Below the pieces are notes generated by a model that had not been told where the DNA came from, searched no databases, and worked only from the letters and a program-made list of their open reading frames with translations. DNA of 64,000 bases, taken from the NCBI GenBank assembly GCA_965221695.1, contig OZ244905.1:762355-826354 (forward strand). Direction: 5' to 3'. Origin of the DNA: Gammaproteobacteria bacterium (GTDB lineage Bacteria; Pseudomonadota; Gammaproteobacteria; Eutrophobiales; Eutrophobiaceae). Made by a program: the position numbers and the translations under genes. Shown piece after piece: positions 7,979 to 57,976 of this stretch. Position 1 is the stretch's first letter, and each line of letters opens with the position of its first letter.

Positions 7979-8035
7979 TGATCAGGGCACTGCGCAACGG
8001 TATGTGCCAGATGGAACAGGCCAGGGTATTCTCCA

Positions 8036-38054: not shown

Positions 38055-38186
38055 TATGGGTTCGCCTCATCGTTATCGTCATCGTTAATTCCTGCGGCCC
38101 GCGCGTATGTTCTTCGGGCTTATGTTCTTGGCGCTTGTGCTGCCAGTGGATTGCATCTGATATTATGGATATAATTTATTTTATCG

Positions 38187-38245
38187 TTGTTGTCAAATAA
38201 TATCGATATTTTTTCGTTTTGTCGATATTTTTTTATAGCATATTG
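38187..38245. promoter_or_regulatory. Putative operator/promoter element (site B) in the GST <-> GntR divergent region: TTGTTGTCAA + AATAATATCGATATTTTTTC + GTCGATATTTTTTTATAGC
   Basis: TTGTTGTCAA at 38187-38196 (its reverse complement contains TTGACA for the minus-strand operon). ATATCGATAT at 38200-38209. A second TCGATATTTTTTT at 38222. TTATAGC shared with site A. Confidence 0.5.
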
Positions 38246-38333
38246 TTTTACTGTAACGCCAGTTGAGCATGAACTTATTCAAAAAACCTCACAGACCCCG
38301 CTTTTCACCCTTCACAACAGCCTTGCCGGGTAA

Positions 38334-39014
38334 TTGACGATGCGCGCCAAAACGCTGGTTGAAGCGTCTTATGACCGGATCCGTTCCGATATTATCGCGG
38401 GGAAACTGGCGCCGGGTTCCAAGCTGCGCATTGAGGAGTTGCGGGAAGACTATAACATCGGCGCAAGCCCGTTACGCGAGGCCCTGAACCGGCTGGCCGG
38501 CGAAGGCTTTGTCACCGCGGAAAGGCAGCGAGGGTTCAAGGTTGCGCCGGTTTCTACAGAGGACCTGAAAGACCTGAGTCGCATGCGGGTGATGCTGGAA
38601 TGCCAGGCGTTGCGCGACAGTATCAGGAACGGCGATGATGAATGGGAGGTAAACCTGGTCGCATCCCACCACCGCCTGCAAAAGGCGGAACAGCATTACG
38701 GTAAGAACCTGGCGGAATGGGAACAACGCAACGATGAATTCCACGAAGCCCTGGTGGCGGCCTGCGGCTCAACATGGTTACTGCGCTTGCGCCACCTGCT
38801 CTACGAACAGCATAAGCGCTACCGTTTCATCGCGATACTGTCCCAACAGGAAGGGCGGGATGTTCACCAGGAACATCGCGAGATACTGGAAGCGACTCTG
38901 GCGCGTGACATCAACGCGGCCTGCAAAGCCACGCAACAACATATACAGCAGACGTTGGACACCAGCATCCGGGTATTCACTGAGCTGGAAAAAAACAGCC
39001 CCCTCTCCGTATAA
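38334..39014 (+). CDS. GntR-family transcriptional regulator (FadR/FCD subfamily)
   Basis: 226 aa. N-terminal wHTH (AKTLVEASYDRIRSDIIAGKLAPGSKLRIEELREDYNIGASPLREAL), then a helical FCD-like effector domain. Divergent from the catabolic operon. The start may be the ATG ~6 nt downstream of the track TTG. Confidence 0.85.
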   Translation: MTMRAKTLVEASYDRIRSDIIAGKLAPGSKLRIEELREDYNIGASPLREALNRLAGEGFVTAERQRGFKVAPVSTEDLKDLSRMRVMLECQALRDSIRNGDDEWEVNLVASHHRLQKAEQHYGKNLAEWEQRNDEFHEALVAACGSTWLLRLRHLLYEQHKRYRFIAILSQQEGRDVHQEHREILEATLARDINAACKATQQHIQQTLDTSIRVFTELEKNSPLSV

Positions 39015-39034
39015 CTGCCCGGGGTAGTACCGTC

Positions 39035-41329
39035 TTGAACAATACGTTTCTCCGTTCAATCCCGGCGGCCATCATAGCTGTGTTGACAACATTTGCCGGC
39101 CTGGCCCAGGAAACTGCGCCATTGCTGGAAGAGATCATCGTGACCGCCGAAAAACGCGCCGAAAGCCTGCAGGACTTGTCCCAGGCCGTGACCGCGCTGT
39201 CGGGCGAGGCACTGGACAACCGCAATATCACCAGCTTTGTGGACCTCAGCGGCATAGCCCCGGGCGTTACCGTCGCCAAGAACGAAGGGGTAAGAACCGT
39301 CATCTCCATACGCGGCGTGGGCAACGAGGCCAACCAGAACTCGATAGCCAACCCTTCCGTGTCCTACCACCTGGACGGAATCTACGTGGCATCGCCGTTT
39401 GCCCTGCGCACCGACTTCCTGGACCTGGAACGTATTGAAGTGTTGCGCGGCCCCCAGGGCACCCTGTTCGGCCAGAACTCCACGGGCGGTGCGATCAATG
39501 TGATTACGCAGGCGCCGGATACAGGGGAATTCTTCGGCAAGGCCGATATCACAGTGGGGAACTACAGCCTGACGCGGGTGCGCGGTTCGGTCAACATCCC
39601 CATCAGCGATACCACGGCCTTGCGCGCCTCGGTCGCTACCCACAACCATGACGGCTTCAGCAAGAACATCTTGCTGGACCAGGAACTGGATCAGGCCGAC
39701 AACTTTTCCGGCCGCACCCGCCTGCTCTGGGCGCCGGCTGAAAACCTGCGCTTCAACTTCACTGCGCAGTATTTTGACGAAAACACCAACGGCGCGGCAC
39801 AGAAAGGTATTTTCGACTCCACCCCGAACCCGCGCCGTCTGACCCAGGACCGGCACAGCAGTTACCAACTGGAGAGCCAGCTCTACAGTCTGGTCGCTGA
39901 ATGGGAACTGCCCGCGTTCACGGTCAAGTCGCTGACCAGCTACCAGGACGATGAGGTCTCCGCGTCACGGGACAACGACCGTCATGATTTTTCCACGCTG
40001 ATTAACCGCGGGACCTTCCTGTTGCCAGCCAGCGTTGATCCGGAGGCTGTCGGCCAGAAGACCATCACACAGGAGCTCAACCTTATCTCCTACGAACCGC
40101 TGTTCGGCCGACTCGATTGGGTGGTCGGGATGTTCTACCTGGATACCGATGTGGACATCCTGTTTCGAGAATATATCGACTTTAATACCGACGGCGTTTA
40201 TGGTCCCGACAAGGTCAGTGTGGAGGAGGTGCTGAACTTCGGGGGAGAAGTCGGCTTCATCTCTGATTCAAATCCGCAGCGGGAATCGATCTCCGTCTAT
40301 GGCCAGGGCGCGTACAATCTTACCGACAGTCTGCGCCTGGTCGCCGGGCTGCGTTATACGGAAGATCAGGTTAACTCCAAGGTCACCAATTTCTTCGGCC
40401 GCGCCGGCACCGCTGTTCTTGAAACCCGGAGCGAGAAGCTTACCGGCCGCGGCGTGGTGGAAATCGATCTCAACATTAACGCGATGGCATATGCGTCATA
40501 CACCCGCGGTTTCAAACCGGGCGGCAGCAACCTGACCTACGGCCGGGAGGATGTGGTGGCTCCCATCCTGGTGCTGCCCACCTACAAGGATGAGACGGTA
40601 CAGGCCTGGGAAGTCGGCCTCAAGACCGACTTTGCCGGCAACCGGGTGCGGGTCAACGCCGCGGCGTTCTACTACGACTACGAAAACCTGCAATTCCAGG
40701 CGACCGACCCCGAAGTGTTCGAGGGTGGGGTCGGCAACCTGCCGGGATCGGAAATCTACGGCGCCGAGATGGAACTGCTGGCGTTCGTCACAGACAGCCT
40801 GACCCTGGATGCGCGCCTGTCCTGGCTGGAAACGAAGATCTCCGAATCACACCTGGCGCTGGACAACGTGCGCTCCGATGACGCCACCAACGCGCTCTTG
40901 CCCCAGTGCCAGTTCAACCTGTTCTGCGACGACATCCAGCGCGCCCGCGCCGCGGCGGTGACGGACGTAAAAGGCAACCAACTCGCCAAGACGCCCAATT
41001 TCACCGCGGACGTGATGCTGCGCTACCTGACTCGCCTGGGCAATTGGAGCGATTTCGAGACCAGCGTGCAATACCTCTACCGGGGCGGCTTCCAGCACCG
41101 CATCTTCAACAACCCGAAAACCGATGATGTGCCCAGCTACCATATCGTCAACCTGGTATTGACGATTGCGCCGGACGCGTACCCCTGGCACATCGACCTG
41201 ATGGGAATGAACCTGACTGACGAAGATGGTATTAACGCCCGCTTCACCGATGTCTTCGGCGTCGGCTCCACCAGCGACGAACTGATCCCACCCCGGCAAT
41301 ACATGGTACGCTTCGGCATGGAGTTCTGA
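39035..41329 (+). CDS. TonB-dependent outer-membrane receptor
   Basis: 764 aa. Signal peptide. TonB box/plug EEIIVTAEKRAE. C-terminal ...MVRFGMEF with terminal Phe. Confidence 0.9.
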   Translation: MNNTFLRSIPAAIIAVLTTFAGLAQETAPLLEEIIVTAEKRAESLQDLSQAVTALSGEALDNRNITSFVDLSGIAPGVTVAKNEGVRTVISIRGVGNEANQNSIANPSVSYHLDGIYVASPFALRTDFLDLERIEVLRGPQGTLFGQNSTGGAINVITQAPDTGEFFGKADITVGNYSLTRVRGSVNIPISDTTALRASVATHNHDGFSKNILLDQELDQADNFSGRTRLLWAPAENLRFNFTAQYFDENTNGAAQKGIFDSTPNPRRLTQDRHSSYQLESQLYSLVAEWELPAFTVKSLTSYQDDEVSASRDNDRHDFSTLINRGTFLLPASVDPEAVGQKTITQELNLISYEPLFGRLDWVVGMFYLDTDVDILFREYIDFNTDGVYGPDKVSVEEVLNFGGEVGFISDSNPQRESISVYGQGAYNLTDSLRLVAGLRYTEDQVNSKVTNFFGRAGTAVLETRSEKLTGRGVVEIDLNINAMAYASYTRGFKPGGSNLTYGREDVVAPILVLPTYKDETVQAWEVGLKTDFAGNRVRVNAAAFYYDYENLQFQATDPEVFEGGVGNLPGSEIYGAEMELLAFVTDSLTLDARLSWLETKISESHLALDNVRSDDATNALLPQCQFNLFCDDIQRARAAAVTDVKGNQLAKTPNFTADVMLRYLTRLGNWSDFETSVQYLYRGGFQHRIFNNPKTDDVPSYHIVNLVLTIAPDAYPWHIDLMGMNLTDEDGINARFTDVFGVGSTSDELIPPRQYMVRFGMEF

Positions 41330-41343
41330 CGGGAATGGTTCCG

Positions 41344-43650
41344 TCATTTTCCATCTGCATCTCTCAACACCGTCGTTTCATAGCGAACTCCATCCGGTAT
41401 CGGCACCGCCTGGTGCACGGTCACACCGTACTCCCCCTCGGTGGGTTTGGATGAATCCACGGCTACGAACGATGTGTAACTGGACACAAGCTGGTATTGC
41501 AGTGCAACCCGCCTGATGGCGTCACGCAACTCCCCATGGGGGTCTCCCACAGTCGACTGCCGATCCGATAGCTCGGCGATATTGGTACGCGCCCAGACCT
41601 TGGCGAGAGACGGACCGGCATTGCTTGCGCCAGTAGCATCCAGCGCAAAAGCACGGCGCGTGCCGTCAACCGTCCCGGATACGGTCACCGTTGTGGGTTC
41701 GTCCCGGAACTTTCCTGCAACAACCAGTGGTCGTCCTACAAACAGGTCGGGGAGGTGGCCGGGATAGGTATTGGATACGGCCATGTTACCCCAATCAATT
41801 TCAATGTCGGTGAGCGCCGCGCGGCTTACGCGCTTGAAAAATTCCTCCATCACCTGTTCCGCCGGATCATTCAGTCCCAAGTAGGCGACGGCGCCGCGCC
41901 CGACTTTAGCCATTCGTTCCATAAGATAGCGGTTGACGGATTCTCCAACACCAAAACTGAAAATGCGGGCATTGCTGATACGCTTGTACACCTCGGCCAA
42001 AATCTCTGCTTCATTACCGATATAACCATCCGTTAGAAACGAGACAAACCGGAACCGCGACGGGTTGTGAGGAAAATCCAGGGCTGCCCTGATCCCCTCG
42101 ATCATCATCGTGCCGCCCTGGCTGTCCAGTTTCGCAAGATATCGACGGGCAGCCGCCAGGTTTTTCTCCGTCGCGGCGACAGGCTCCCGGCCAAATTGGG
42201 AGGCATTATCCGAAAAACGGATGATCTGGAACGTATCGGTCGGGTGAAGCAGTCCCAATGCCGTATCGATAGCCTGTTTGGCCTGAGCCAGTGGACGGCC
42301 GCTCATCGAACCGGAACAGTCGATGACGAACACCATCTCCATCGGTCGGCGAGAAACCCGCAAAGTATCTATCGGTGGGATCATCATCAGTGAAAAGAAC
42401 CCTTCTCCCGTCTCCGGGTCTTGGTAGGTCATCAGGCTGGATTTGACGGCCTCTCCGGCGATGCGATAATCGAGCACGAAATCCCGATTGGGAAGAGTAG
42501 TCTGTTGCGCCAGTTGTACGGTCGCAGACGCAGACCCGTCCCGATTGACATTGATCTCATGGGTCGATTTCAGCTCTTCGATGTGCACGCCGGCGTCGAT
42601 GCGCACGCTGATACCCAGGTCATGACCTGATCGCTCCGAAGGCGTAAGGTATTCAACACCTATTGCACCCGGCGTTGCCGTGCGGCCACCGCGCGGGAGC
42701 GCCACTACCGGGTCGTGGCTTTTGGGCGGGTTGAAGCGCGGACCGACCACCGTGGGAAATACGAAAGAGTACCACCCATCCTTGTACGCGAGGGTGTGAA
42801 AGTAGGTGATGTCGACATCGATTGCCTTACCGGGCTCAATGTTGGCGACTTTCTGCTCGAATATGTTCGGACGATGCTGGACCAACAGACTTGCATGGTA
42901 GCCCTGCTCCCGCGCCGCGTGATAGATGGCCTCAGCTTCTTCCTTCTCCCGCAAGATGCCACGAATGGTGCGCTCCCCGATGACCATCAGGAATTCTGAG
43001 ACCGCGGCTTTCTCCGGCAGTGGAAACACATAGACGGCCTCGATCTTTGTATCAAACGGGTTGGCAAACTGCTGTTTAACCCGAACTGTGCTGATGTGGC
43101 CGGCAATAGATGCGTCTACGTCCGTGTGTTGCAACGGCAGCGGCACCTCTGCTGTTTCTCCGGCTTTATCTTGGGGTGGAACGTTCGCAATCAGACTTCC
43201 GGAACCGGGAACCTGTGTGCCTTCACCGACTGAAGGAGTGGAAGCCGCATAATCGGTAATTTCTTCAGAAGATGACGCCTTGGCGATGATCCAGATTTCC
43301 TCTGAAAAGGATTTTGACACCGCGCCCGGAGAAGCCAGGACGCCTTCCTGGGCTGGCACATCAAGTGGCAAGCCACTAACGTTACCCAGCCTTTCCCGAA
43401 AAACCTGGTAAGACTGCGTTTGTGACAGTGGCGCTGTGTCCAAGTGCGGGTAGACGGCTGGTTCCCCAGGTATCGGCAAGCCACCTGCTCCTTCCATTGT
43501 CTTCTCCGGAGGCGCGGACTGGGAAGTCTGCCCCTGAGGTGGTGGTGAAGCGGGCATCGGTGGTGGGCTGGAGCACGATGCCAGCAACTTGATGCCGATC
43601 ATCATCAGCAAAATTATCATGCAGGATACAAATTGGAACTGTCTATTCAT
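41344..43650 (-). CDS. VIT + von Willebrand factor A domain lipoprotein
   Basis: 768 aa. Signal/lipobox ...LLASCSS. Pro-rich linker. vWA MIDAS motif VFVIDCSGSMSG. N-terminal VIT-like region. Confidence 0.75.
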   Translation of the reverse strand: MNRQFQFVSCMIILLMMIGIKLLASCSSPPPMPASPPPQGQTSQSAPPEKTMEGAGGLPIPGEPAVYPHLDTAPLSQTQSYQVFRERLGNVSGLPLDVPAQEGVLASPGAVSKSFSEEIWIIAKASSSEEITDYAASTPSVGEGTQVPGSGSLIANVPPQDKAGETAEVPLPLQHTDVDASIAGHISTVRVKQQFANPFDTKIEAVYVFPLPEKAAVSEFLMVIGERTIRGILREKEEAEAIYHAAREQGYHASLLVQHRPNIFEQKVANIEPGKAIDVDITYFHTLAYKDGWYSFVFPTVVGPRFNPPKSHDPVVALPRGGRTATPGAIGVEYLTPSERSGHDLGISVRIDAGVHIEELKSTHEINVNRDGSASATVQLAQQTTLPNRDFVLDYRIAGEAVKSSLMTYQDPETGEGFFSLMMIPPIDTLRVSRRPMEMVFVIDCSGSMSGRPLAQAKQAIDTALGLLHPTDTFQIIRFSDNASQFGREPVAATEKNLAAARRYLAKLDSQGGTMMIEGIRAALDFPHNPSRFRFVSFLTDGYIGNEAEILAEVYKRISNARIFSFGVGESVNRYLMERMAKVGRGAVAYLGLNDPAEQVMEEFFKRVSRAALTDIEIDWGNMAVSNTYPGHLPDLFVGRPLVVAGKFRDEPTTVTVSGTVDGTRRAFALDATGASNAGPSLAKVWARTNIAELSDRQSTVGDPHGELRDAIRRVALQYQLVSSYTSFVAVDSSKPTEGEYGVTVHQAVPIPDGVRYETTVLRDADGK

Positions 43651-44108
43651 TGCGACCTCTCCTGTAGGTAGTCGTCAGGTTCTGTTAAAGAAATCTTCGC
43701 ATTGATTACACGCCCTTCTCGTGTGGTAGCCACAATCAGGCGCAATTCGAAATCGGGTTCTCCTTCCAGCATCAGGTGTAGCCTGGCGAGACGAACGCGA
43801 CCACTTGGCAATGTGCTTTCATCGGCCAGCGAGTAATCGGCAACGACTATCCGGTCAGCATTACCACCGGCGACAGGTTCCCGGTCATAGTACGGCGCCC
43901 GCTGAAAAGCAGGGTGACCGCCGTTCTCGACACCCACCACTTTCATCGCGCCGTTGCGGTCTTTGAGTTCGAACTGCCAGGCGGCCACGGTAGTCGGGCT
44001 GTCCAAGTAGATGTCCAGCGACGCAAAACGCGTGCTTGACCTGCTGTCCGCACAGACGAAACCCGTAAGCAAGATGAGAAAGGCTGCTACGAAGAGCCGA
44101 CTGTTCAT
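43647..44108 (-). CDS. Hypothetical secreted protein (operon partner of the VIT-vWA protein)
   Basis: 153 aa. Signal peptide MNSRLFVAAFLILLTGFVCA. 4-nt overlaps with both neighbours. Confidence 0.5.
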   Translation of the reverse strand: MNSRLFVAAFLILLTGFVCADSRSSTRFASLDIYLDSPTTVAAWQFELKDRNGAMKVVGVENGGHPAFQRAPYYDREPVAGGNADRIVVADYSLADESTLPSGRVRLARLHLMLEGEPDFELRLIVATTREGRVINAKISLTEPDDYLQERSQ

Positions 44109-44500
44109 AGCATGCCGTCCCGGTCCAAAGCCACCAGGCGATAAGCGAAAGCATCCAGGTCAGCTTGGGTAACATCCTGGTCCGCGCGAGCCAGGGCCAG
44201 GACATCGGCAATATCGATCCGGCCGGAGCCGTCAAAATCTGCGTAAATCGGAATGTCGTCTTGTTGAGTAAGCTGTATTGTCATAAACAGGGCAACCACG
44301 AGCACACAGGCCGCAGCTACGCGCCAGGCGCCCAGTGGTTGCCAAAGAGGGATACGGCGTGGTGCGAACTGGGCGTGCGTCATGCCGGCCAGCCTGCGGT
44401 CGACCCGGGAGGTGATAATATCGGGTGCCGCGTCGATGCGCTTCAGCTCATCGATCAGGGCTTCGGGCAGTTGCTCGTTTTGTTCGTTTACGCCAGTCAT
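44105..44500 (-). CDS. Putative anti-sigma factor (single TM) with a dockerin/EF-hand-like DxDxSGxIDxxD motif
   Basis: 131 aa. Central TM (WRVAAACVLVVALFMTI). DFDGSGRIDIADVLAL. Located directly downstream of the ECF sigma gene. Confidence 0.5.
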   Translation of the reverse strand: MTGVNEQNEQLPEALIDELKRIDAAPDIITSRVDRRLAGMTHAQFAPRRIPLWQPLGAWRVAAACVLVVALFMTIQLTQQDDIPIYADFDGSGRIDIADVLALARADQDVTQADLDAFAYRLVALDRDGML

Positions 44501-44545
44501 GTCATGAGTTCCCTGTCCATATAACGCACTACATGGAAAAAAGGT

Positions 44546-45130
44546 TCATTCGACTGAAAAATAATCCGCAAGCAGAGGAGAATCCCTGAGAATTGCGATG
44601 CCCCCGTGCAGTCGGGACTTCACGGTACCCACAGGGATGCCCAGGACTTGTGCGATCTCATCCAGCGACATCCCGTCCACGAATCGAAGCATCAGGGTCT
44701 CCCGTTGGCCGAGCGGCAGATTCGCAAGCAACTTGCCGAGGTCTCTGTTGTCTCTATCCTGGGGGGCGGGCATATCTTCGGGCGTTATATCATCGGCAAT
44801 CGGGAACCGTCCTGCCTTGCGCGTTGCTGAAATTGCCGCGTTTTTTGCTATGGGATAGAGCAGCGTCGTCAGCTTGGCTGTCAGTATTATCCCTTCACCG
44901 GCAGGCGGAAAACGACGTAGCAGTTGGACAAAGGTATCTTGGAGCACATCCAGTGCGACATCGATATCAGGAGTAAAGCGTAGCGCTACGCGCAACACGT
45001 AATCCTTGTGGCGCAGATACAGGGCTTCAAACGCGGCCGCCGCTGCGACTGCATCACCATGGTTGCAAACGTCCACCAGCGTTTCGTCGTTACGAGGGTC
45101 TTGCCGATGGCTCCGGACCATGATGTGCAA
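44546..45130 (-). CDS. RNA polymerase ECF-type sigma-70 factor
   Basis: 194 aa. Region 2 (YLRHKDYVLRVALRFT...DVLQDTFVQLL) and region 4 HTH (LPLGQRETLMLRFVDGMSLDEIAQVLGIPVGTVKSRL). Confidence 0.85.
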   Translation of the reverse strand: MHIMVRSHRQDPRNDETLVDVCNHGDAVAAAAAFEALYLRHKDYVLRVALRFTPDIDVALDVLQDTFVQLLRRFPPAGEGIILTAKLTTLLYPIAKNAAISATRKAGRFPIADDITPEDMPAPQDRDNRDLGKLLANLPLGQRETLMLRFVDGMSLDEIAQVLGIPVGTVKSRLHGGIAILRDSPLLADYFSVE

Positions 45131-45285
45131 TCACTCAAGAGTTAGCGCCGGTTAGTCACCGGACGGTAAACCATCCTTATTTGTTGTCCGCCTGCAAAAT
45201 CGGCAAACCATGCCCGCAGATGTTAGCATTTGATCTGGTTATTACTGTGCTAATTGAAAATCAAATTTACAATTAGCACATGTTT

Positions 45286-45735
45286 TTAGCTCTCCATTGT
45301 CATGGTTTCAGCGGCCCTGTCACCTACAACAAGGCTTCTTCCCACAGATCGTAAGGCCACTTCAACACTGCTGATATGCGAACGATGATCTGGGTCAACG
45401 AGCTTTCGGGCCGCAGCCTCGCTCAGACCAAGACGTTTTGCCAGCGCTGTCTTGCTAATACCCTGGCGGCGCATGGCCGTATACAGCGCCAATTTTGCAG
45501 CTACGACTGGTGAAACCGCAACAAGTTCCTGGCCATCCACCACGGCGCTCGGTACCGGAATGTCCCAATGCTGCCGAACATACCCTGCCAAAGCGGCTGT
45601 TAACGCATCTTCAGCCATTGCCAGCGCTTCGCTCCTGTCCTTACCGCCGGTAAGCGCCCCCGGCACATCCGGGAAGGTGACATAGAAACCCCCTCCCTCT
45701 TCCGGGGATAAAACACATGGATAAACGTAGTACAT
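45286..45735 (-). CDS. hicB: Type II toxin-antitoxin HicB-family antitoxin (second copy)
   Basis: 149 aa. N-terminal HicB-like fold (YVYPCVLSPEEGGGFYVTFPDVPGALTGG). C-terminal HTH/RHH-like (ISKTALAKRLGLSEAAARKL). 1-nt overlap with the upstream hicA. Confidence 0.75.
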   Translation of the reverse strand: MYYVYPCVLSPEEGGGFYVTFPDVPGALTGGKDRSEALAMAEDALTAALAGYVRQHWDIPVPSAVVDGQELVAVSPVVAAKLALYTAMRRQGISKTALAKRLGLSEAAARKLVDPDHRSHISSVEVALRSVGRSLVVGDRAAETMTMES

Positions 45736-45941
45736 CAGAATTCCTCTTTTTCGATATCAAGGTCTTTCAGCATCGCCGCAAGAAGCCCCTTACCGATTTC
45801 TTTTCGCGGTACAGTCGTAAACCGGTTGCCAAGATGAAGACGCCCGTGACTTCCCTTGCCACGTCTGGGGTCATAATGGCATCTCAACCCTTTCTTCCTA
45901 GCATAACGCTTGACGCGCCAAATGAATTCCGTTCCGTCCAT
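45735..45941 (-). CDS. hicA: Type II toxin-antitoxin HicA-family toxin (second copy)
   Basis: 68 aa. KRYARKKGLRCHYDPRRGKGSHGRLH matches the HicA signature. Confidence 0.8.
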   Translation of the reverse strand: MDGTEFIWRVKRYARKKGLRCHYDPRRGKGSHGRLHLGNRFTTVPRKEIGKGLLAAMLKDLDIEKEEF

Positions 45942-46144
45942 GGTAATATAATAGTGCTATATACTACGAAAATCGATAGAATTCGTACTTTTATATTCGC
46001 ATAGTGGTGTCGGGTTCATCAAACTCAATTCCGTGAAATAAATTCTCATACTCACGTTTGTACTAAACATCAAATCGTGCTGTATATTATTCCCCTATCA
46101 AAGCGTCCGACAGACTGCAAGTGGTGAAATTGGAGTAAAACCTC

Positions 46145-48394
46145 GTGCCAACATTAGATCACAAGCTCGTAGAAATTGCACTTGAACATACAGGTGGGAC
46201 TGAGTTTGAGAAGTTTTGCCAGACTTTTTTCACAAATGTGGTGGGTGTCGAATTAGTTCCCTTGGGTGGGATGCATGATGGTGGAGCTGATGCTTTCTTA
46301 GGTGAAGGCTTGCTCCAAGGCAGTCATACCAAGCCTGATGTTTTCTTTCAAGCAACAACTCAAGCAGACCACCGTTCTAAAATTCGAGCAGACCACCGTT
46401 CTAAAATTCGACACACCGTTGAAAGATTACGAAAAGTCGGACGACAGCCCAAACTTGTTAACTATTGTACATCTCGCATGATAGGCATGATTGACAAGGA
46501 AGAAGAGGCGCTTTCAAATGAACTAAATGTCGATGTTAGAATTAGAGATCGTAACTGGATTGTCAGCAATATAAATCACTCTCCACAGACAATTGCGGCT
46601 TTCAATAGCTATTTAGCGCCATCGCTAAGTTTCCTTGAGGATTTCAATACATCCTTGAAAATAAAAGTATTGCCCGATATATCTGCACGTACTATGTGTG
46701 TATTTCTGGGGCAAGAAATAGACCGGCGGCGTGGCAATACAGATCTTCTTGAGGCGGTAACTGATAGCTTAATCTTATGGGCATTAGAAGATACTGACCC
46801 AGACACCAAAATTTTTATGAAGCGCCAAGATATTATAAATAAAATTGAAGGAACATTGCCTTCTGCAAAACAGTTCATCCGCGGCGTATTTGATAACCGA
46901 ATAAGACTATTAGCATCCAAAACTAATACTACAGGTAGAGAGATCCGTTGGTATAAGAAAGAAGATAAATTTTGTCTCCCGTATGAAACTCGTAAAATCA
47001 TAATAAATGAAAAAACTGAGGATGAATTCTTAAAAATTAAAGTCATGGATCTATACAGAAAAAGAGCCAATGAGTGTCTTAATGAGGAAACAATTGCACT
47101 TTCTGATGAGGTTGCAAACATCGCACACAGGGCGCTCGAACTGACGTTTGAAAATGAGGGGCTATTACTGGCTGCTTTTCTGACGGGAGAAAATACTCAA
47201 AACCAATACGATGGCACGATCTCAGATCAAGTTGATGAAGCCATTAATGAAACTAAACTGACCGGTGAAACCGCAACTAGTTACAAGGAGGTAGCACTGT
47301 CGATTCTTCGGCAAGCTTTTTACAAAAGTACAGAAGAAGAACGCATATATTATGGCAAACTTTCCCGCACCTATACTCTAATGTTCACATTACGCAATGA
47401 GCCGAGAATCGTTGAATATTTCAAAAGTATGTCATCAAATTTTGTTTTGTTCATTGGCTCCGACATCATCATCCGAGCGCTATCAGAGAGATATTTGGCA
47501 CCTGAAGATCAGATGACTATCAATATGCTGTATATTCTTCAAGATGCAGGCTCCTCCCTTATCCTAACCCAAATGGCAGTCAGAGAAGTTCAAGCTCACT
47601 TGAGAGCCACAAATCAGGAATTCCAGAATTACTTCGTAAGCTTGGAGCACAATGTCGACAAAGAAATTGCTCGTCACTCCGATAAAATTTTGATCCGTTC
47701 TTATTTCTATGCAAAATTTAATCCATCACTAGATTCAAAGCCCAATAGTTGGCGAGATTTCGCTGGACAGATTTGTAGCCACGAAAAACTTCATAAGACG
47801 GAAGAATCCAGGATTGAGGTGAAGAATTATTTAATTGAAAAATTCAATTTCGAGTATTTAGATGACAATGATTTGGAAAAGATCACAAATGAGAACGAAA
47901 TAAATAATCTTGCTGAAAAACTTACAGAAATCAAATCAGAGGAAGTACTAGCCCTTAACGATGCAAAACATATTCTTGGAGTCTATGGAAAACGTCGTGA
48001 CCTGCGAGAAAATCATATATCTAATCCTTATGGATATCGAACTTGGTGGCTTACGCATGAAACTAAGGTCCGAAGCGTCACTAAAGATATTGTTGATAAT
48101 CAGGGGGCAGAATATATCATCCGTCCCGAATTTATCCTGAATTTCATCGCGCTTTCACCAACAATGGCGCAAGTGCGCAAAAGTTATAATACCATTTTCC
48201 CCACTCTTTTAGGTATCAGGTTATCTAATAGAATGAGGAAAGATATTTTCCAAAAAGTAATGGGAAAAGTACAGGAAGTAAGAAGAATTGATGATGCACG
48301 CGCCAAAGCCAAGCTTGCACAGATGTCAAACGATCTAAAAGGTGACAATTTCAAGCAGTATGAAAATAATTTTGAACTCCTTTTTCAAGAATAA
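46145..48394 (+). CDS. Large hypothetical protein with an N-terminal Mrr-like (PD-(D/E)xK restriction-endonuclease) domain; candidate defence protein; low GC
   Basis: 749 aa. N-terminus TGGTEFEKFCQTFFTNVVGVELVPLGGMHDGGADAF resembles the Mrr catalytic-domain signature (…FE.F…G..V…GG.DGG.D…). About 650 further residues have no recognisable motif. GC content is visibly much lower than in the flanking genes. Contains a perfect in-frame 24-bp tandem duplication. Confidence 0.6.
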   Translation: MPTLDHKLVEIALEHTGGTEFEKFCQTFFTNVVGVELVPLGGMHDGGADAFLGEGLLQGSHTKPDVFFQATTQADHRSKIRADHRSKIRHTVERLRKVGRQPKLVNYCTSRMIGMIDKEEEALSNELNVDVRIRDRNWIVSNINHSPQTIAAFNSYLAPSLSFLEDFNTSLKIKVLPDISARTMCVFLGQEIDRRRGNTDLLEAVTDSLILWALEDTDPDTKIFMKRQDIINKIEGTLPSAKQFIRGVFDNRIRLLASKTNTTGREIRWYKKEDKFCLPYETRKIIINEKTEDEFLKIKVMDLYRKRANECLNEETIALSDEVANIAHRALELTFENEGLLLAAFLTGENTQNQYDGTISDQVDEAINETKLTGETATSYKEVALSILRQAFYKSTEEERIYYGKLSRTYTLMFTLRNEPRIVEYFKSMSSNFVLFIGSDIIIRALSERYLAPEDQMTINMLYILQDAGSSLILTQMAVREVQAHLRATNQEFQNYFVSLEHNVDKEIARHSDKILIRSYFYAKFNPSLDSKPNSWRDFAGQICSHEKLHKTEESRIEVKNYLIEKFNFEYLDDNDLEKITNENEINNLAEKLTEIKSEEVLALNDAKHILGVYGKRRDLRENHISNPYGYRTWWLTHETKVRSVTKDIVDNQGAEYIIRPEFILNFIALSPTMAQVRKSYNTIFPTLLGIRLSNRMRKDIFQKVMGKVQEVRRIDDARAKAKLAQMSNDLKGDNFKQYENNFELLFQE
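46364..46411 (+). repeat. Perfect 24-bp tandem duplication (GCAGACCACCGTTCTAAAATTCGA x2) inside the 749-aa ORF, encoding ADHRSKIR x2
   Basis: Direct read of the sequence at 46364-46387 and 46388-46411. The duplication is in frame. Confidence 0.9.
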
Positions 48395-48449
48395 TCCAGA
48401 GGGTGTACTGAGCGCATGCAAGTGTCGTCGTGATTAATGCTTAAATCCA

Positions 48450-48836
48450 ATGCAAACATTGCAAACAAACTCAGATATTCCGGATGACACTGCAGCGGTC
48501 ATCGAGGGTAAACACAGGACGGGTTTAACTGTTGTTCCTGACGGCTACAGGGTAAAAAAGTTGGCTGAAGTGAAAAACTATCTAAACCACAATATGGATC
48601 TGTTGGGTTTTTTATCGTCGCTGCCCGCATCTATCTCTAAATCGAAAGGCGTGGAATCCATTGACCTGGAGTTCTATCATGATATTGAGGAACATTGGGA
48701 TAAGCTGTTTGTAGTCGTCAACACTCAAATCGAAGATATGGATGAACTCGATGCCCTGGAAGACTCATTATATTCTTCTTTGTTTGAACCCAAGGATGAT
48801 ATGCTATCAGGTCGAGTGGTGCTATCCGTAGGATGA
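48450..48836 (+). CDS. Hypothetical protein (acidic C-terminus)
   Basis: 128-aa ORF with no recognised motif. The HEPN-like ORF follows 4 nt downstream. Confidence 0.4.
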   Translation: MQTLQTNSDIPDDTAAVIEGKHRTGLTVVPDGYRVKKLAEVKNYLNHNMDLLGFLSSLPASISKSKGVESIDLEFYHDIEEHWDKLFVVVNTQIEDMDELDALEDSLYSSLFEPKDDMLSGRVVLSVG

Positions 48837-48839
48837 CCT

Positions 48840-49061
48840 ATGCCGATTGAACCAAGGGACATGGTTGCGTACGCGCATGGGATGCTTAAAACAGCAGGAT
48901 CAGAAATCGAGTATAGAAACGTTGTAAATCGCGCCTATTATGGGGCTTTTATCACCGCCAGAGACTTTGCAGAAATTACTACCGATAGCGGGAGCGTACA
49001 TCGTGAAGTCGTTGAGCACTACCGCGTCGATGTAGTTACTCATGTGGCGGGTGGCGCGTAA
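48840..49061 (+). CDS. Small HEPN-like protein (possible HepT-type toxin domain); conflicts with an antisense ORF
   Basis: 73 aa. RAYYGAFITARDF resembles the HEPN helix. C-terminal R-x4-H-x-Y (VHREVVEHYRVD) resembles the HEPN RX4-6H nuclease motif. AGGATGA RBS. Overlaps the minus-strand ORF 48900-49163 by 162 bp. Confidence 0.3.
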   Translation: MPIEPRDMVAYAHGMLKTAGSEIEYRNVVNRAYYGAFITARDFAEITTDSGSVHREVVEHYRVDVVTHVAGGA

Positions 49062-49163
49062 CAGCTTGTCTATCTCTTTATCGGTCCTGGCCTGTGAAAT
49101 AGCAAGTTTATCCAAGGAAGCCGATATGTCCGCCAAGGACCGGAGAGTTTTTTCTTCATTCAT
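48900..49163 (-). CDS. Alternative small hypothetical ORF antisense to the HEPN-like ORF
   Basis: 87 aa. Strong AAAGGAG RBS 8 nt upstream of the ATG. No motif recognised. It is mutually exclusive with the plus-strand HEPN-like ORF over 162 bp. Confidence 0.3.
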   Translation of the reverse strand: MNEEKTLRSLADISASLDKLAISQARTDKEIDKLLRATRHMSNYIDAVVLNDFTMYAPAIGSNFCKVSGGDKSPIIGAIYNVSILDF

Positions 49164-49616
49164 GATGAGATCTCCTTTCTGGGATAACCGGAATAATCAG
49201 GATCGAGGCACACACCCAACGGCGTGTCCGGCAGTATTGTCGCATGTTCCCGGTGCAATGAATATGTGAAAGGCTCGGTATGTGTGCCCCAGGTCGGAAT
49301 GCAGTATAATCAACTTTCCTTGATATTTTGTCAGCCCGCACAAATTACAATACAAATATGAAACAGGCTGATTTCAAACAACCGGCCCAACGAATTTATC
49401 GCGCCCGGCAAACAGAAGGTGTGGAATGCAGACTGGAGTTCCACAGGCAGGATAGATCGTTCCGGTTCATCGACTCACTGTGCTGGTAGGATAGACGAAG
49501 CGCCAGAGGCAGGATGATTCGGGTGGAATTTATAGCGGTAGATACGACTGCTGACCCTGAGAGTGCAGGCAATAAAGTCAAGCGCCTCCGTAGTGCCGCA
49601 ATCAAGTAACAAGCAT

Positions 49617-51164
49617 ATGGCAAAGCCAGAAAAAAACAAAGGCGCTCATCTCGGGTTCGAGTCGAAGCTCTGGGCGACCGCGGACAAGTTGCGCGGCAAC
49701 ATGGAACCGTCCGACTACAAGCATGTCGCTCTCGGCCTGATCTTCCTCAAGTACATCTCGGACGCTTTCGAAGCAAAGCGAAGCGAGTTGCTAAAGAACA
49801 AGAATGCCGATGCCGAGGATCCGCTGGAATATCTCGCCTATAACCTCTTCTGGGTTCCTAAGGCAGCTCGCTGGTCGCGTCTGCAGGCCAGAGCCAAGCA
49901 GACGACGATTGGCAAAGACATCGACGATGCCATGCTAGCCATTGAAGCCAGCAATACCTCGCTCAAGGGCGTCCTGCCGAAAGATTACGCCCGACCGGCG
50001 CTCAATAAGGTCATGCTCGGCGAACTGATCGACCTGGTGAGCGGCATCGGCATGGCCGAAGAGGCGGACCGCTCCCGCGACATACTCGGGCGGGTGTACG
50101 AGTACTTCCTCGGCGGCTTTGCCGGGGCGGAAGGCAAGCGAGGCGGCGAGTTCTACACGCCCCGCTCCGTCGTCCGGCTACTGGTCGAAATGCTGGAGCC
50201 TTACAAGGGCCGCGTCTATGACCCCTGCTGCGGTTCCGGCGGCATGTTCGTGCAGTCAGAGCGTTTCGTCGAGGAACACGGCGGACGCGTAGGCGACATT
50301 GCTATCTACGGCCAGGAAAGCAACTACACGACCTGGCGTCTCGCCAAGATGAACCTTGCGGTGCGCGGTATCGACGCCGATATCCGCTGGAACAATGAAG
50401 GCAGCTTCCACAAAGACGAACTACCGGACCTCAAGGCCGACTTCATCCTGGCCAATCCACCCTTCAATGTCTCCGATTGGGGTGGCGACCGGCTACGCGA
50501 CGATGTCCGCTGGACGTTCGGCGTGCCACCGGTAGGCAACGCCAACTACGCCTGGCTCCAGCACATCCACCATCACCTTGCACCCAATGGATCAGCAGGG
50601 GTGGTACTCGCTAACGGTTCCATGTCCACCACAACGTCAGGTGAAGGAGACATCCGTCGCGCCATGGTCGAAGCCGATGCGGTGGATTGTATGATCGCAC
50701 TGCCGGGACAGCTCTTCTATTCGACACAGATCCCCGCTTGCCTCTGGTTCCTCGCTCGCAACAAGAATCCTGGCCAAGGTCAACGTGACCGGCGCGGCGA
50801 GGTGCTGTTCATCGACGCCCGCAAGGTCGGGCACATGGTCGACCGGACCCGTAAGGAGTTTTCTGACGAGGATATCGCACGGATCGCAGATTGCTACCAT
50901 ACCTGGCGCGGAGAACCCGACATGGCCCTATATGAAGATGAACCGGGCTTTTGCAAGTCCGCCACGCTGGAGGAGATTACGAAACACGGCCACGTTCTGA
51001 CACCCGGCCGCTATGTTGGTGCTGCGGCAATCAAAGATGATGACGTGCCATTTGAGGAGCGGTTCGCGGAGTTAAAGGAGACGCTGGCTGAGCAATTCAC
51101 CGAGTCCCGAAACCTGACCAAGATCATTCAGAATAAACTGGACGAAATCGGTACTCATGAATAG
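49617..51164 (+). CDS. hsdM: Type I restriction-modification system DNA methyltransferase subunit HsdM
   Basis: N-terminal [38 protein letters not shown] motif. N6-adenine MTase catalytic motif NPPFN ([12 protein letters not shown]). Preferred start is the ATG at 49617. Confidence 0.9.
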
Positions 51165-52449
51165 ATGGTCCATACTTTCATTGCGGGACGTCGGTGTCGA
51201 GTTGATTGACTGTCTACACAAGACACCCGCAGCACAAACGGAGGGATATCCATACGTAGGTATTCCTCAGATGAGGGACGGATGGATAGACTTTGGCAGC
51301 GCTCGAAAGATATCACATGACGACTTTGTCGAATGGACGACGAAGGCAATGCCTCAACAACACGACGTAATTCTCTCGCGGCGTACAAATCCTGGGGTAA
51401 CGGCCATTGACAGGACAGGCACTGAATTCGCGCTCGGTCAGAATCTCGTCTTACTTCGCGCAGATGGCATCCAAATCGATCCACCATTTTTGAAATGGCT
51501 CGTACGCTCGCCTGCTTGGTGGCAGCAGGTTGAAAAATTCATGAACGTTGGCGCTGTATTCAACAGCTTGAGGTGTGCTGATGTGCCTAACTTCGAGCTC
51601 CCAGTTCCGCCCTTCGAGACTCAACGGCGAATGGGAAACTTGCTTGATGTCCTTGAAAGCGCAATTGACATGAATCGTCGAATGAACGAAACACTGGAGG
51701 CGATGGCTCGGGCAATCTTCAAGGACTGGTTCGTCGATTTCGGCCCCACGCGTGCCAAGGCTGAAGGGCGCGCTCCCTACCTCGCCCCCGACATCTGGGA
51801 TCTGTTCCCTGACGCACTGGACGACGAGGGCAAGCCGGTTGGATGGGATTGGTCAAAAATCGCGTCGATGGCGAGCACTAAGCTAGGAGGTACTCCTTCG
51901 CGCAAGAAACCCGAATTGTGGGGTGGCAGTGTGCCTTGGATAAACTCGGGAAAGGTCAATCAGCTCCGTGTGATATCCCCCAGCGAATTCATCACAACTG
52001 AAGGATTAGAGAATTCCTCGGCTAAGCTACTGCCCAAGAGAACGACTCTAATTGCCATTACTGGCGCCACTTTAGGCCAAGTTAGTCTTAGCGAGTGTGA
52101 GACTAGCACCAATCAATCTGTGGTTGGCATAGTCGGCAATGATCGAATGCTGAATGAGTTTCTATATTGTTGGATAAGAGAAAATATTGGCGAGCTTCTT
52201 GCGTTACAGACAGGTGCCGCTCAACAACACATCAACAAGGGCAATGTTGACCAATTAGCGGTTCTGTCTCCAGCCGCGGAAGTATTGAACTCTTGGGTTA
52301 GTCTGTCACGGCCGCTCTTTGACTTGATTGCGTTGAATTGCTTCGAAAGTGAAACCCTATCCGTAACTCGCGACCTTCTCCTTCCAAAACTCATGTCCGG
52401 CGAAATCCGTCTTCGGGATGCCGAAAGGGCTGTTGAGGCCGTGGCATGA
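51157..52449 (+). CDS. hsdS: Type I restriction-modification specificity subunit HsdS
   Basis: 430 aa. Two target-recognition-domain halves with conserved spacer helices. Overlaps hsdM by 8 nt. Confidence 0.8.
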
Positions 52450-53594
52450 TCCGCGTCCCCGTCAACCCCGATCTTCTGCGCTGGGCCCGCGAGCGCGCCA
52501 GAGTCACGCAGGATGACCTGACCGTTAAGTTCAAGAAGCTGCCCAGTTGGGAGGACGGAGAGGCGCAACCTACTCTCAAGCAATTGGAAAAGTTCGCTCG
52601 CGCCGTCCATGTGCCATTCGGTTACCTTTTTCTCACAGAGCCTCCCGAGGAACCTCTCCCGATTTCGGATTTTCGTACGGTCACGGATACTGCAACCGCC
52701 AGACCAAGTCCGGATTTGCTCGACACACTCTACGCCATGCAGCGGCGGCAGGCGTGGTTACGCGAATACCTCGTTGAGAACGACGCGGAGCCGCTGACAT
52801 TCGTGGCTAGCGCCCGACTTGCTGACGACCCAAGCGTCGTAGGTCGTGAAATGCGGCGCACCCTTGGTCTTGAAGAGGGTTGGGCCGAGGGAGTCACCAC
52901 TTGGCAAGATGCCGTGAATGAACTACGCCGCATGATCGAAGGGCTAGGCGTAATGGCCGTGATCAATGGCGTGGTCGGCAACAATACGCACCGTCGGTTG
53001 AGTGTGGCGGAGTTTCGCGGGTTCGCGCTCTCGGATCGCTACGCGCCCCTGCTCTTCGTGAATGGTGCGGATGCGAAGTCCGCCCAAATGTTCACACTGG
53101 CTCACGAACTGGCGCACATCTGGCTCGGTGAAGCGGGGATTTCCAATTTCGAGAACCTCCTTCCCGGCGGCATGAAGGTGGAAGATTGGTGCAACCAGGC
53201 AGCGGCCGAATTCCTCGTACCTTCGGGAGAGTTGCGGGAGCGATGGATTGAGGTGAGACGGGGACAGAATCCCTTCGAGGACCTTGCACGCTCGTTCAAG
53301 GTGAGCCCCGTGGTCGCCGCCCGTCGAGCTATGGACCTCAATCTCCTTGAGCGTAACGCCTTTTTCGATTTCTATCAGCGCTACTTCAACCAGGAACGCA
53401 GGCCTGGCAAGACATCGTCCGGAGGCGATTTCTACAACAACCAAAATGCGCGCGTCGGTAAGCTTTTCGCAACCTGTGTGATGAGAGCGGCTCTGGAAGG
53501 TCAAATCGGATTCAGAGTGGCTTACGAATTGACCGGTCTCCGGGGCGGAACATTTCAGGATTACGCCGGGCGATTGGGCATCAGGCTCCCGTGA
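52446..53594 (+). CDS. XRE-family HTH + ImmA/IrrE-family Zn-metallopeptidase (COG2856-like)
   Basis: 382 aa. N-terminal HTH region. Zinc-peptidase HExxH motif in FTLAHELAHIWLGE. 4-nt overlap with hsdS. Confidence 0.75.
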   Translation: MIRVPVNPDLLRWARERARVTQDDLTVKFKKLPSWEDGEAQPTLKQLEKFARAVHVPFGYLFLTEPPEEPLPISDFRTVTDTATARPSPDLLDTLYAMQRRQAWLREYLVENDAEPLTFVASARLADDPSVVGREMRRTLGLEEGWAEGVTTWQDAVNELRRMIEGLGVMAVINGVVGNNTHRRLSVAEFRGFALSDRYAPLLFVNGADAKSAQMFTLAHELAHIWLGEAGISNFENLLPGGMKVEDWCNQAAAEFLVPSGELRERWIEVRRGQNPFEDLARSFKVSPVVAARRAMDLNLLERNAFFDFYQRYFNQERRPGKTSSGGDFYNNQNARVGKLFATCVMRAALEGQIGFRVAYELTGLRGGTFQDYAGRLGIRLP

Positions 53595-54112
53595 TGGCAG
53601 ATCGACTCTATCTTGTAGACTCCGATGTCCTGATTACGGCGAAGAACCTTTACTATGCTTTCGATATTTGCCCGGGTTTTTGGAAGTGCTTGATTCAACG
53701 GCACCGGGAGGGTCTTGTTTTCAGCGTCGACCGGGTACGCAACGAACTGCTGGCAGGTCGCGAAACAGAGGAGCTTGTTCGCTGGGTCAGGAACGAAGTT
53801 CCGGAGGGTTTTTTCCTGGCTATGGATTCCGATGAGGTAGCTCGCGTCTATACGGAAATCATGTTGTGGGTACAGCGGCATCCGAATTACTTTGACCAGG
53901 CTAAGGCGCAATTCGCAACAAGCGCCGATGGCTGGCTCGTCGCATGCGCACAGGTGCGAAGTGCAACGGTTGTGACGAATGAGCAGCCTTCCCCGGAGTC
54001 CAGGAAAGTCGTAAAGCTGCCGGATGTCTGCGACAAGTTCAATGTTCCTTGGAGGAATACCTTTGAGATGCTTCGAGCGTTAGGGGCGCAGTTCGATTTG
54101 GAGAAGAGTTAG
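53591..54112 (+). CDS. DUF4411-family (PIN-like fold) protein, partner of the XRE/ImmA protein
   Basis: 173 aa. N-terminal LYLVDSDVLITAKNLYY (PIN-like acidic start). 4-nt overlap with the upstream gene. Confidence 0.65.
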   Translation: MMADRLYLVDSDVLITAKNLYYAFDICPGFWKCLIQRHREGLVFSVDRVRNELLAGRETEELVRWVRNEVPEGFFLAMDSDEVARVYTEIMLWVQRHPNYFDQAKAQFATSADGWLVACAQVRSATVVTNEQPSPESRKVVKLPDVCDKFNVPWRNTFEMLRALGAQFDLEKS

Positions 54113-54249
54113 ATGGCTGATGCCAGAGGCTGGAGAATCAAGATTCCGAATGCCTGCATCATGCTCGGCCTACGCTGCATGAACCCCGACGAGATGCTCC
54201 ATCGCGAGTGCGCAAGATTTATCCTGGGGACGAGAAGAGACACGGCCTG

Positions 54250-57525
<3,276 letters not shown>

Positions 57526-57573
57526 CCTCAAAGACCTTCGAGATACAGGTTCAGGACTATCTGGATAGGAACT

Positions 57574-57831: not shown

Positions 57832-57879
57832 GGTTACCTCCCTCGGTCGTATTCTCTCGTTCCTTTATTATTGCCATTA

Positions 57880-57911: not shown

Positions 57912-57976
57912 CAAGCTTTCCTGTAACCAACTTCCCGTTCTTACGGCAGATGCCGATGGGGAGGCGGAAGAAGTCC

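Follow-up and report, generated by a model that had tools for sequence, protein, structure and literature searches.

What does an uncharacterised 749-residue protein do in an AT-rich segment of a gammaproteobacterial chromosome, encoded between a HicAB toxin-antitoxin (TA) pair and a Type I restriction-modification (R-M) system? The locus lies in a 64,000-nucleotide stretch of contig OZ244905.1 (GenBank assembly GCA_965221695.1), referred to here as the window. A sequence-only reading of this stretch had taken positions 45942-49560 as a horizontally acquired insert and the large gene in it as a candidate defence gene. Comparison with a sister genome indicates that the gene was acquired alone, on a cassette swapped into a variable island, and we estimate at roughly 55% the probability that its product is a single-polypeptide, auto-inhibited dual-nuclease effector directed against phages or plasmids. 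The cassette and the parts of the protein are listed below (ORF, open reading frame; aa, amino acids; GC, guanine plus cytosine).

45936..48410, no strand: single-gene cassette of 2,475 bp, GC 0.39, delimited by blastn blocks and base-level breakpoints against the sister genome (L054/L055) and by GC
46145..48394, + strand: ORF of 749 aa with a GTG start, member of an uncharacterised family of ~740-aa proteins
46145..46654, + strand: predicted N-terminal PD-(D/E)xK (Mrr-like) nuclease domain, aa 1-170, with invariant E22, D45, D49, Q69, S/T71 and K87
46363..46411, + strand: exact tandem duplication, 24 bp in two copies, in-frame (ADHRSKIR/ADHRSKIR), Tandem Repeats Finder, 100% match
46679..46984, + strand: putative winged-helix-like domain, aa ~179-280, with a conserved 'ALEGTDPD' segment and invariant L214 and T217
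46985..47434, + strand: all-helical region, aa ~281-430, from secondary structure, without domain matches
47435..48079, + strand: PIN-like domain (VapC-group, PIN_12/DUF4935-like), aa ~431-645, with conserved D440, S447, E448, E481, D606, S/T637 and D/E639
48080..48391, + strand: C-terminal helical tail, aa ~646-749, family-conserved, from alignment and model

The composition of the segment is atypical. At 0.390, the GC content of 45936-48410 is the lowest in the window and lies about 4 standard deviations (SD) under the mean of sliding 2,475-bp windows over the 64 kb (0.555, SD 0.038); the only such windows below 0.45 GC overlap this same region. The longer span 45942-49560 has a GC content of 0.414 against 0.565-0.587 in the flanking backbone, and both spans are therefore AT-richer than their flanks, as had been noticed. 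Along the GC profile, values of 0.51-0.60 drop to 0.37-0.44 at ~45750-48750 and are back up by ~49500, the most extreme drop of the window.

The limits of the acquired unit were obtained from the sister genome, which is syntenic with the window and was found through a 95%-identical homologue, on a 3.5-Mb contig, of a 128-aa ORF located just beyond the large gene. The comparison used blastn blocks and base-level alignments of the breakpoints. The flanks are ~98% identical, yet the slot of the cassette is occupied by an unrelated gene in the sister genome. The corresponding segments (blastn identities) are the following.

L054 1-7438 and window 37834-45285: 97.8% identical
L054 7665-8149 and window 45451-45935: 99% identical
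L054 8150-9961 (445-aa Peptidase_M10_C/HemolysinCabind gene, opposite strand) and window 45936-48410: unrelated
L054 9962-10424 and window 48411-48873: 96% identical
L054 10920-11327 and window 49026-49378: 78% identical
L054 11328-13256 (174-aa gene and AAA_14/DUF4143 gene) and window 49379-57914 (whole Type I R-M operon): unrelated
L054 13461 onward and window 57977 onward: 92-98% identical

The left breakpoint (45935|45936) falls within codon 2 of hicA, whose start is intact in the window and lost in the sister copy. The right breakpoint (48410|48411) is located 16 nt past the stop of the 749-aa ORF. The unit that differs is therefore a swapped, horizontally acquired, single-gene cassette of 2,475 bp, which stands in the place of 1,812 bp of GC 0.45 in the sister genome (L054 8150-9961). 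Presence/absence polymorphism, sharp breakpoints and atypical composition are all found at this locus. The extent of 45942-49560 first given to the insert has accordingly to be shortened, since the unit with the large gene stops at 48410. The DNA beyond it (48411-49378, GC ~0.45), with the 128-aa gene, a 73-aa ORF and decayed sequence, is common to both genomes and is older island DNA outside the cassette. As a whole, the island between the operon of an extracytoplasmic function (ECF) sigma factor and pepM24 is a mosaic with at least two independently variable slots.

The 749-aa ORF is preceded by GGAG ~8 nt 5' of its GTG start, and the N-terminus aligns with those of the homologues. DNA similarity of 45942-49560 to 50 other family loci is limited to the ORF (~46132-48395). 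A search for direct or inverted repeats flanking the cassette found none, and no tRNA gene was found in the window. Promoter and terminator scans gave signal at chance level and were not used. A 23-nt direct repeat (91% identity) between hicB (45505-45527) and the 749-aa ORF (47260-47282), like the other two-copy repeats, was judged to be due to chance. A 170-aa ORF on the opposite strand (46609-47121) falls wholly within the conserved + strand ORF and was for this reason dismissed as spurious.

The protein belongs to a large and uncharacterised family. Searches of the 749-aa protein against Pfam, PADLOC, NCBIfam and PHROGs returned nothing above noise, and the matches to YggL, DUF6899 and phrog_7624 (E 0.1-0.3) were rejected as chance. 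No match was obtained in PADLOC-DB v2.0.0 (2023) at E<=1, nor in PDB sequences at E<=10, whether the query was the protein or the family profile. The gene is uncharacterised, as initially stated, and has no PADLOC model. Homologues that align over their full length, all labelled 'hypothetical', make up at least 602 clusters at 90% identity, and the family profile retrieved 1,278 of 1.84 billion representatives (50% identity) at E<=1e-3, of which 410 reach E<=1e-30. The length of complete members is ~730-760 aa; they match end to end and share a single architecture.

The distribution of the family is wide and sporadic. A scan of the GTDB species representatives with two peptide patterns, whose counts are a lower bound, located the gene in at least 43 loci. 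The hosts include Alpha-, Beta- and Gammaproteobacteria, Acidobacteriota, Nitrospirales (Nitrospirota), Rhodothermales (Bacteroidota), Verrucomicrobiota, Spirochaetota and Binatia. Distant members (23.5% identity, 92% coverage) are carried by eight IncF-type plasmids of Escherichia, Klebsiella and Citrobacter. No family homologue was found among 50,697 phage genomes, and a phage origin of the gene was rejected on that basis. The GC content of the family gene is below that of its surroundings in 35 of 37 loci, with a mean deficit of 0.12; together with the with/without comparison of the sister genomes, this deficit bears out the horizontal acquisition that had been proposed.

Two of the plasmids were inspected, E. 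coli pSYM5/6 (NZ_CP060076.1 13174-15381) and K. pneumoniae pM63-1 (L052/L053), which carry the 735-aa member WP_016156503.1 at 23.5% identity. On both, the same 146-aa hypothetical gene precedes the family gene, and the downstream neighbour is a convergent gene for a 'TrlF family AAA-like ATPase'. The three genes may form a block conserved specifically in the enterobacterial plasmid branch. At two loci from metagenome-assembled genomes, ORFs are split: the adjacent hsdM/hsdR genes at L035 (2609-8722) are divided into several ORFs and the family gene itself is possibly split at L039 (9995-12430), either by pseudogenisation or by frameshifts of long-read assembly.

Which activities does the protein carry? 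The full AlphaFold model (predicted local distance difference test score, pLDDT, 77; predicted template modelling score, pTM, 0.75) contains a restriction-endonuclease-like alpha-beta-beta-beta-alpha-beta core fold in aa 1-170. The top structural neighbours of this domain are catalytic domains of modification-dependent or Mrr-like enzymes, namely AspBHI (score 9.0), LlaBIII (8.2) and MspJI (8.1). Scores against PD-(D/E)xK restriction-type catalytic domains in the analysis of the overall architecture were 8.8 for AspBHI, 8.5 for AF1548, 8.0 for Avs4, 7.9 for MspJI, 7.8 for FokI and 7.5 for LlaBIII. Conservation was counted over 50 divergent members in an alignment down to 24% identity, with 44 close members for comparison. 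F21, E22, G41, D45, D49, Q69 and K87 are invariant (50/50), a Ser or Thr occupies positions 71 and 91 in every member, and D135 is kept in 48. The set E22, D45, D49, Q69, K87, E448 and E481, which spans the N-terminal and PIN-like domains, is invariant across members at 24-59% identity. The domain displays a Glu on helix 1, an 'hDGGxDg' motif running into strand 2 and, ~20 residues on, 'YQxS' on strand 3. As judged from the alignment, this layout mirrors the Mrr-type D...(E/Q)xK signature except for the Lys, and the invariant K87, on the helix after strand 3, is a candidate relocated lysine. The Mrr/PD-(D/E)xK-like start attributed to the protein thus stands for the 'GG.HDGG.D' block, which is present, for the invariance of D45 and D49 and for the fold; it does not stand for the Mrr_cat profile, which the window protein does not match, or for the canonical Lys, replaced by Ser/Thr.

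Profile matches in individual members point to the same fold. At relaxed thresholds, the only Pfam families matched by more than two of the 50 divergent members are Mrr_cat (5), PIN_12 (3) and PIN (3). The Mrr_cat (PF04471) matches map to aa 10-99, the best with an E-value of 0.0013, and the scores seen (15.6 and 16.3 bits) are under the gathering threshold of 21 bits. One member matches SMEK_N at aa 18-114, SMEK being listed among the nuclease domains of partner proteins of short prokaryotic Argonautes (pAgo; PMC10810196). The PADLOC model Aga_REase-TIR-PNTD1-PNTD2, which corresponds to Mrr-TIR-APAZ effectors of a SPARTA subclade (PMC9097488), is matched by 13 of the 50 members (best E 4.5e-7), over aa 13-133 and profile positions 3-121 of 572, i.e. 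the restriction endonuclease (REase) head only. An identity as a short-pAgo Mrr-TIR-APAZ effector was rejected, the match being restricted to this head with no TIR or APAZ matches; no Argonaute gene was seen in the annotated family contexts.

The C-terminal ~650 residues had been described as free of assignable motifs, a view that no longer holds since a winged helix and a PIN_12-like PIN domain can be assigned in them. The all-helical region between the two is a candidate regulatory or sensor part. In the model of aa ~431-645, the PIN fold (a three-layer alpha/beta/alpha arrangement with a parallel sheet) is recognised; strand 2 is followed by a long helical insert and strand 3 by additional helices. 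The same insert and helices occur in DUF4935 (Pfam PIN_12), which is related to 1y82 and 1w8i (Matelska et al. 2017, PMC5499597) and whose genes are usually monocistronic (PMC5499597). Matches to PIN_12, PIN and PIN_3 in individual members begin at aa 416-421. The best PIN_12 match of a member covers aa 416-522 and profile positions 1-109 of 172; its score of 19.7 bits (E 0.0012) falls short of the gathering threshold of 32 bits, and the window protein has no match to Pfam PIN_12. E448, E481, W634 and W635 are invariant in the 50 divergent members, as is S/T637; D/E639 is found in 49 and D606 in 46. The canonical first Asp, D440, is present in 44/44 close members and in 24/50 divergent ones, and the invariant E448 may compensate for its variability. 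The acidic residues of the window copy are D440, E481, D606 and E639. On conservation, both nuclease sites look functional, and neither is canonical.

This domain composition would also suit a Type IV-like restriction enzyme that depends on DNA modification or on some other feature of the DNA. Foreign DNA would then be bound by the winged helix and cleaved by the Mrr-like domain, without abortive-infection or suicide logic, and the PIN domain would have an accessory or structural part. The nearest structures of the N-domain (AspBHI, MspJI and LlaBIII) and the weak Mrr_cat matches favour such an enzyme, as does the position of the winged helix next to the nuclease domain. E. coli Mrr, SdaI and FokI likewise combine a nuclease domain with a winged helix, and the last two are among the structural matches. 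Like the genes of many Type IV enzymes, the family gene is a stand-alone one, and R-M or GmrSD genes adjoin it in several loci. However, the domain order is reversed relative to Mrr, the canonical Lys is absent, the modification readers SRA, PUA, YTH and DUF3427 were not detected in scans of the window protein and of the members, and the role of ~470 more conserved residues, among them a PIN domain whose acidic residues are invariant, would go unexplained. We consider a Type IV-like enzyme unlikely.

Known systems resemble parts of the family protein. Its N-domain is closest to the Mrr-like heads (Mrr_cat PF04471, short-pAgo Mrr-TIR-APAZ, Avs4, LlaBIII, AspBHI and MspJI), from which it differs by a Ser/Thr in place of the (E/Q)xK Lys in 50/50 members and by the invariant Lys on the next helix. 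Unlike Mrr-like defence proteins, the family has no TIR, APAZ, STAND, helicase or methylase modules. DUF4935/PIN_12 proteins are ~350 aa long with an N-terminal PIN domain, whereas the family PIN lies at aa ~431-645 of 749, behind a second nuclease domain. Only one described family was found with the same order of folds, DUF1308, which has an N-terminal PD-(D/E)xK-like and a C-terminal PIN-like domain; DUF1308 is eukaryotic and its PIN probably lacks the active-site acidic residues (PMC5499597). It differs in being eukaryotic or viral and much shorter, with no winged-helix or helical modules described, and no similarity to it was seen in Pfam scans of the window protein and the 50 members.

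The genomic context of the family was surveyed by clustering all ORFs within +/-6 kb of the gene at 37 loci (raw counts). No conserved neighbour gene was found in this range. Therefore, both a two-gene system and a TA system were set aside, and a Type II TA system of the VapBC kind, which has an adjacent antitoxin, was rejected since none is conserved beside the family gene in the 37 loci. The HicAB genes beside the window gene are a separate and complete TA pair that is also found without it in the sister genome. The commonest neighbours are HsdM-type methylases (5/37), serine resolvases (5/37), HsdR (4/37) and IS66 transposases (3/37; IS, insertion sequence), and the 121 nearest neighbours give a consistent picture when tallied by Pfam and PADLOC. 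R-M genes occur within 6 kb in 5/37 loci, including the window locus. Most of the ~10 contexts annotated with Pfam contain other defence or TA genes; the annotated contexts include the following.

L001: Type I-like R-M and SocA
L002-L004 (Rhizobium): SMODS+SLATT and resolvase
L005 (Brucella): P2-like prophage
L007: IS21, IS110, WYL, PDDEXK_4
L008: transposon genes, resolvase, IS66
L056: ParE, integrases, N6_N4 methylase, ResIII
L057: GmrSD and IS1595
L058: VapBC, Phd, AAA_21-DUF4276
Plasmids: IS1, IS3, TrlF-family ATPase, RES/ParD TA genes

This neighbourhood is as expected of accessory defence genes and mobile cargo. R-M-linked latent nucleases, among which are the anticodon nucleases PrrC and RloC and the HTH-DUF955-PIN modules within hsd operons, share with the family the placement of a nuclease gene next to or within Type I R-M operons, seen in 5/37 family loci. 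In contrast with PrrC/RloC, the family has neither an ABC-ATPase nor an anticodon-nuclease domain, and R-M adjacency is a minority situation for it.

The same contexts raise the question of whether the nuclease serves mobile elements rather than their hosts, as an addiction toxin that stabilises the island, a weapon between elements or a recombination or processing nuclease. Recombinases are the most frequent immediate neighbours (resolvase 5, IS66 3, and IS21, IS110, IS1595, integrases and a prophage), the IncF plasmid copies lie between IS elements, the GC deficit is strong, the distribution is patchy and PIN domains are the classic TA toxins (PMC5499597). However, there is neither a conserved antitoxin-like partner nor a constant recombinase or element type in the 37 loci. 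The flanking recombinases come from unrelated families, and the gene therefore behaves as cargo and not as machinery. In addition, the cassette has no bounding repeats and the gene is absent from the phage genomes. A selfish or element-serving nuclease has, in our estimate, a small probability, comparable to that of a Type IV-like enzyme.

The window copy has a peculiarity of its own. The 8-aa duplication lies between strand beta3 (Q69) and the helix that carries K87, and the model assigns to aa 74-81 a pLDDT below 50, i.e. predicted disorder. The duplication is absent from 93 aligned homologues and unique to the window copy; because it is both exact and unique, it is a recent event, which could be neutral or impairing. 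Could the gene therefore be decaying, weakened or inactivated beside its PD-(D/E)xK site? The recent exact duplication between Q69/S71 and K87 in a predicted disordered stretch would fit, and decay is seen elsewhere in the island, in a truncated HEPN-like ORF and in ~500 bp without any ORF >75 aa, from 49062 to hsdM. On the other hand, the 749-codon ORF is otherwise intact and keeps every family-invariant residue, the duplication is in-frame and in a loop, with a complete copy of the K-bearing helix beside native downstream sequence, and AlphaFold folds the N-domain with a pLDDT of 84.7, although it is insensitive to such changes. Decay of this copy is improbable to about the same degree as the two preceding explanations. 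A housekeeping DNA-repair or RNA-processing enzyme placed in the island by chance is far less probable still and is effectively excluded by the presence/absence pattern, given its absence from the sister genome despite flanks of ~98% identity, its detection in 43 of 185,579 species representatives (a lower bound, from two peptide patterns), its foreign GC in 35/37 loci, its variable context and its plasmid copies.

We therefore return to an auto-inhibited dual-nuclease effector, for which a precedent is Upx, a single-protein dual-nuclease defence whose auto-inhibition is relieved by a phage protein (PMC13099982). Upx and the family have in common one polypeptide with two nuclease domains parted by a regulatory middle, a stand-alone gene and a PD-(D/E)xK domain; one nuclease core of Upx is also non-canonical (DxR). 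By analogy with Upx, auto-inhibition would keep the 749-aa protein off until invasion. The winged-helix and helical parts would sense a cue from the invader, a nucleic acid or a protein, after which DNA would be cleaved by the PD-(D/E)xK domain, and RNA or structured nucleic acid by the PIN domain. The invader would be destroyed or the infection aborted. The single-gene defence or abortive-infection role suggested in the sequence-only reading is plausible in view of the domain content, the mobility of the gene and its genomic context.

Several points weigh against this scheme. Its sensor and auto-inhibition steps are all ones that we infer, and the winged helix is placed at aa ~179-280 tentatively. 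The position of the canonical (D/E)xK Lys is a Ser/Thr (71) in 50/50 members, and DNase activity is therefore not assured. In the PIN-like domain, an acidic residue at 438 or 440 is found in 36/50 divergent members and missing in 14/50. Both nuclease assignments are under the curated thresholds of the hidden Markov models (HMMs), none of which the window copy matches; for Mrr_cat (PF04471) it has no match at E<=1. The copy in the window may be impaired by the duplication near its putative active site. The association with defence is moderate, in that recognised defence genes flank a minority of the loci and many neighbours are metabolic or mobile-element genes. Finally, no description of the family was found in the literature on this architecture or on DUF4935 in defence.

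The broader proposal, that the family as a whole is a previously unrecognised and widespread single-gene immune system combining a non-canonical Mrr-like DNase, a PIN_12-like RNase or structure-specific nuclease and an internal sensor on a bare one-gene cassette, is in our estimate slightly short of an even chance. The family itself, for which neither a curated model nor a published account was found, is new, as are the prokaryotic stand-alone combination of PD-(D/E)xK, winged helix and PIN_12 and the non-canonical nuclease signature that it appears to bear. Each of the domain types is already known, and so are single-gene nuclease defences as a kind.

The surroundings of the cassette in the window comprise the following genes.

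45286..45735, - strand: hicB antitoxin gene (Pfam HicB_lk_antitox)
45735..45941, - strand: hicA toxin gene (Pfam HicA_toxin), with the left cassette breakpoint in codon 2
48450..48836, + strand: conserved small protein of 128 aa, with 29 homologues of ~131 aa and 96% nucleotide identity with the sister genome
48840..49061, + strand: truncated HEPN-like gene remnant, 73 of ~111 aa (homologues 111-112 aa)
49563..57525, + strand: Type I R-M operon hsdM-hsdS-[M78 peptidase-DUF4411]-hsdR (Pfam, synteny)
49563-51164, + strand: HsdM (Pfam)
51157-52449, + strand: HsdS (Pfam)
52446-53594, + strand: M78 (ImmA/IrrE-type) peptidase (Pfam)
53591-54112, + strand: DUF4411, PIN-like (Pfam)
54208-57525, + strand: HsdR (Pfam)

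HicAB, the Type I R-M system and its embedded ImmA-DUF4411 pair, named as neighbours in the sequence-only reading, were all recovered by Pfam. The R-M operon sits in the second variable block (49379-57914), which is absent from the sister genome. Its M78 peptidase and DUF4411 genes lie between hsdS and hsdR, where stop and start codons overlap; a protease and PIN module tied to Type I R-M operons has been described (PMC5499597). The genes past HicAB are ordinary chromosomal ones, for an ECF sigma factor, a VIT/VWA protein and a TonB-dependent receptor. The HicB predicted in the sister genome has 100 aa, against 149 in the window. Another small variable patch, the third, is located inside hicB (L054 7439-7664 differs from window 45286-45450), and the Peptidase_M10_C/HemolysinCabind gene that the sister genome has in the cassette slot is RTX-like.

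The sequence-only reading had spoken of small HEPN-like ORFs near the large gene. This can be kept for the 73-aa ORF, at subthreshold level, and not for the 128-aa one. Full-length homologues of the 73-aa ORF match Pfam HEPN under threshold (E 0.0016-0.0038), and the ORF itself aligns with positions 1-63 of the 132 in the phrog_5176 profile. No Pfam domain is recognised in the ~131-aa family, whose recurrent weak matches to Cpf1 REC2 are probably noise. The ~131-aa and ~111-aa genes have adjacent locus tags in one Gammaproteobacteria metagenome-assembled genome (OXI88_10290/10285), which suggests that they form a two-gene module, possibly TA-like. Both ORFs were rejected as companions of the 749-aa gene, with no tblastn matches in other family loci. 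The DNA at 49062-49560, in which no ORF exceeds 75 aa, has a decayed appearance. Elsewhere in the window, a short dispersed repeat (~55-170 bp, 76-96% identity) is present in at least three copies (12628-12724, 7968-8131 and 31455-31508), with an extra copy in the pepM24-ApbA gap of the sister genome (L054 14662-14834) that is absent at the matching window position ~59146; it may be a repetitive extragenic palindromic (REP)-like or miniature inverted-repeat transposable element (MITE)-like element.

What the cassette means for the family can be stated at several levels. For annotators, the domain map is helpful in a family of ~1,300 representatives from at least eight phyla that has no Pfam, NCBIfam or PADLOC model and also occurs on enterobacterial plasmids; for experimenters, the conserved residues supply a short list of point mutants. 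The invariant change of Lys to Ser/Thr, accompanied by an invariant Lys on the helix that follows, allows a clean test of active-site plasticity in the restriction-endonuclease fold. The sister pair is a natural with/without case in which the slots of a defence island swap single genes at base-pair precision. Overall, the cassette gene is a good candidate for defence, well delimited and experimentally tractable, rather than a conceptual surprise. If the defence role is true, the association of PD-(D/E)xK and PIN domains in one stand-alone protein would join the few known single-protein dual-nuclease systems, and one would then have to ask whether such a protein attacks DNA and RNA together.

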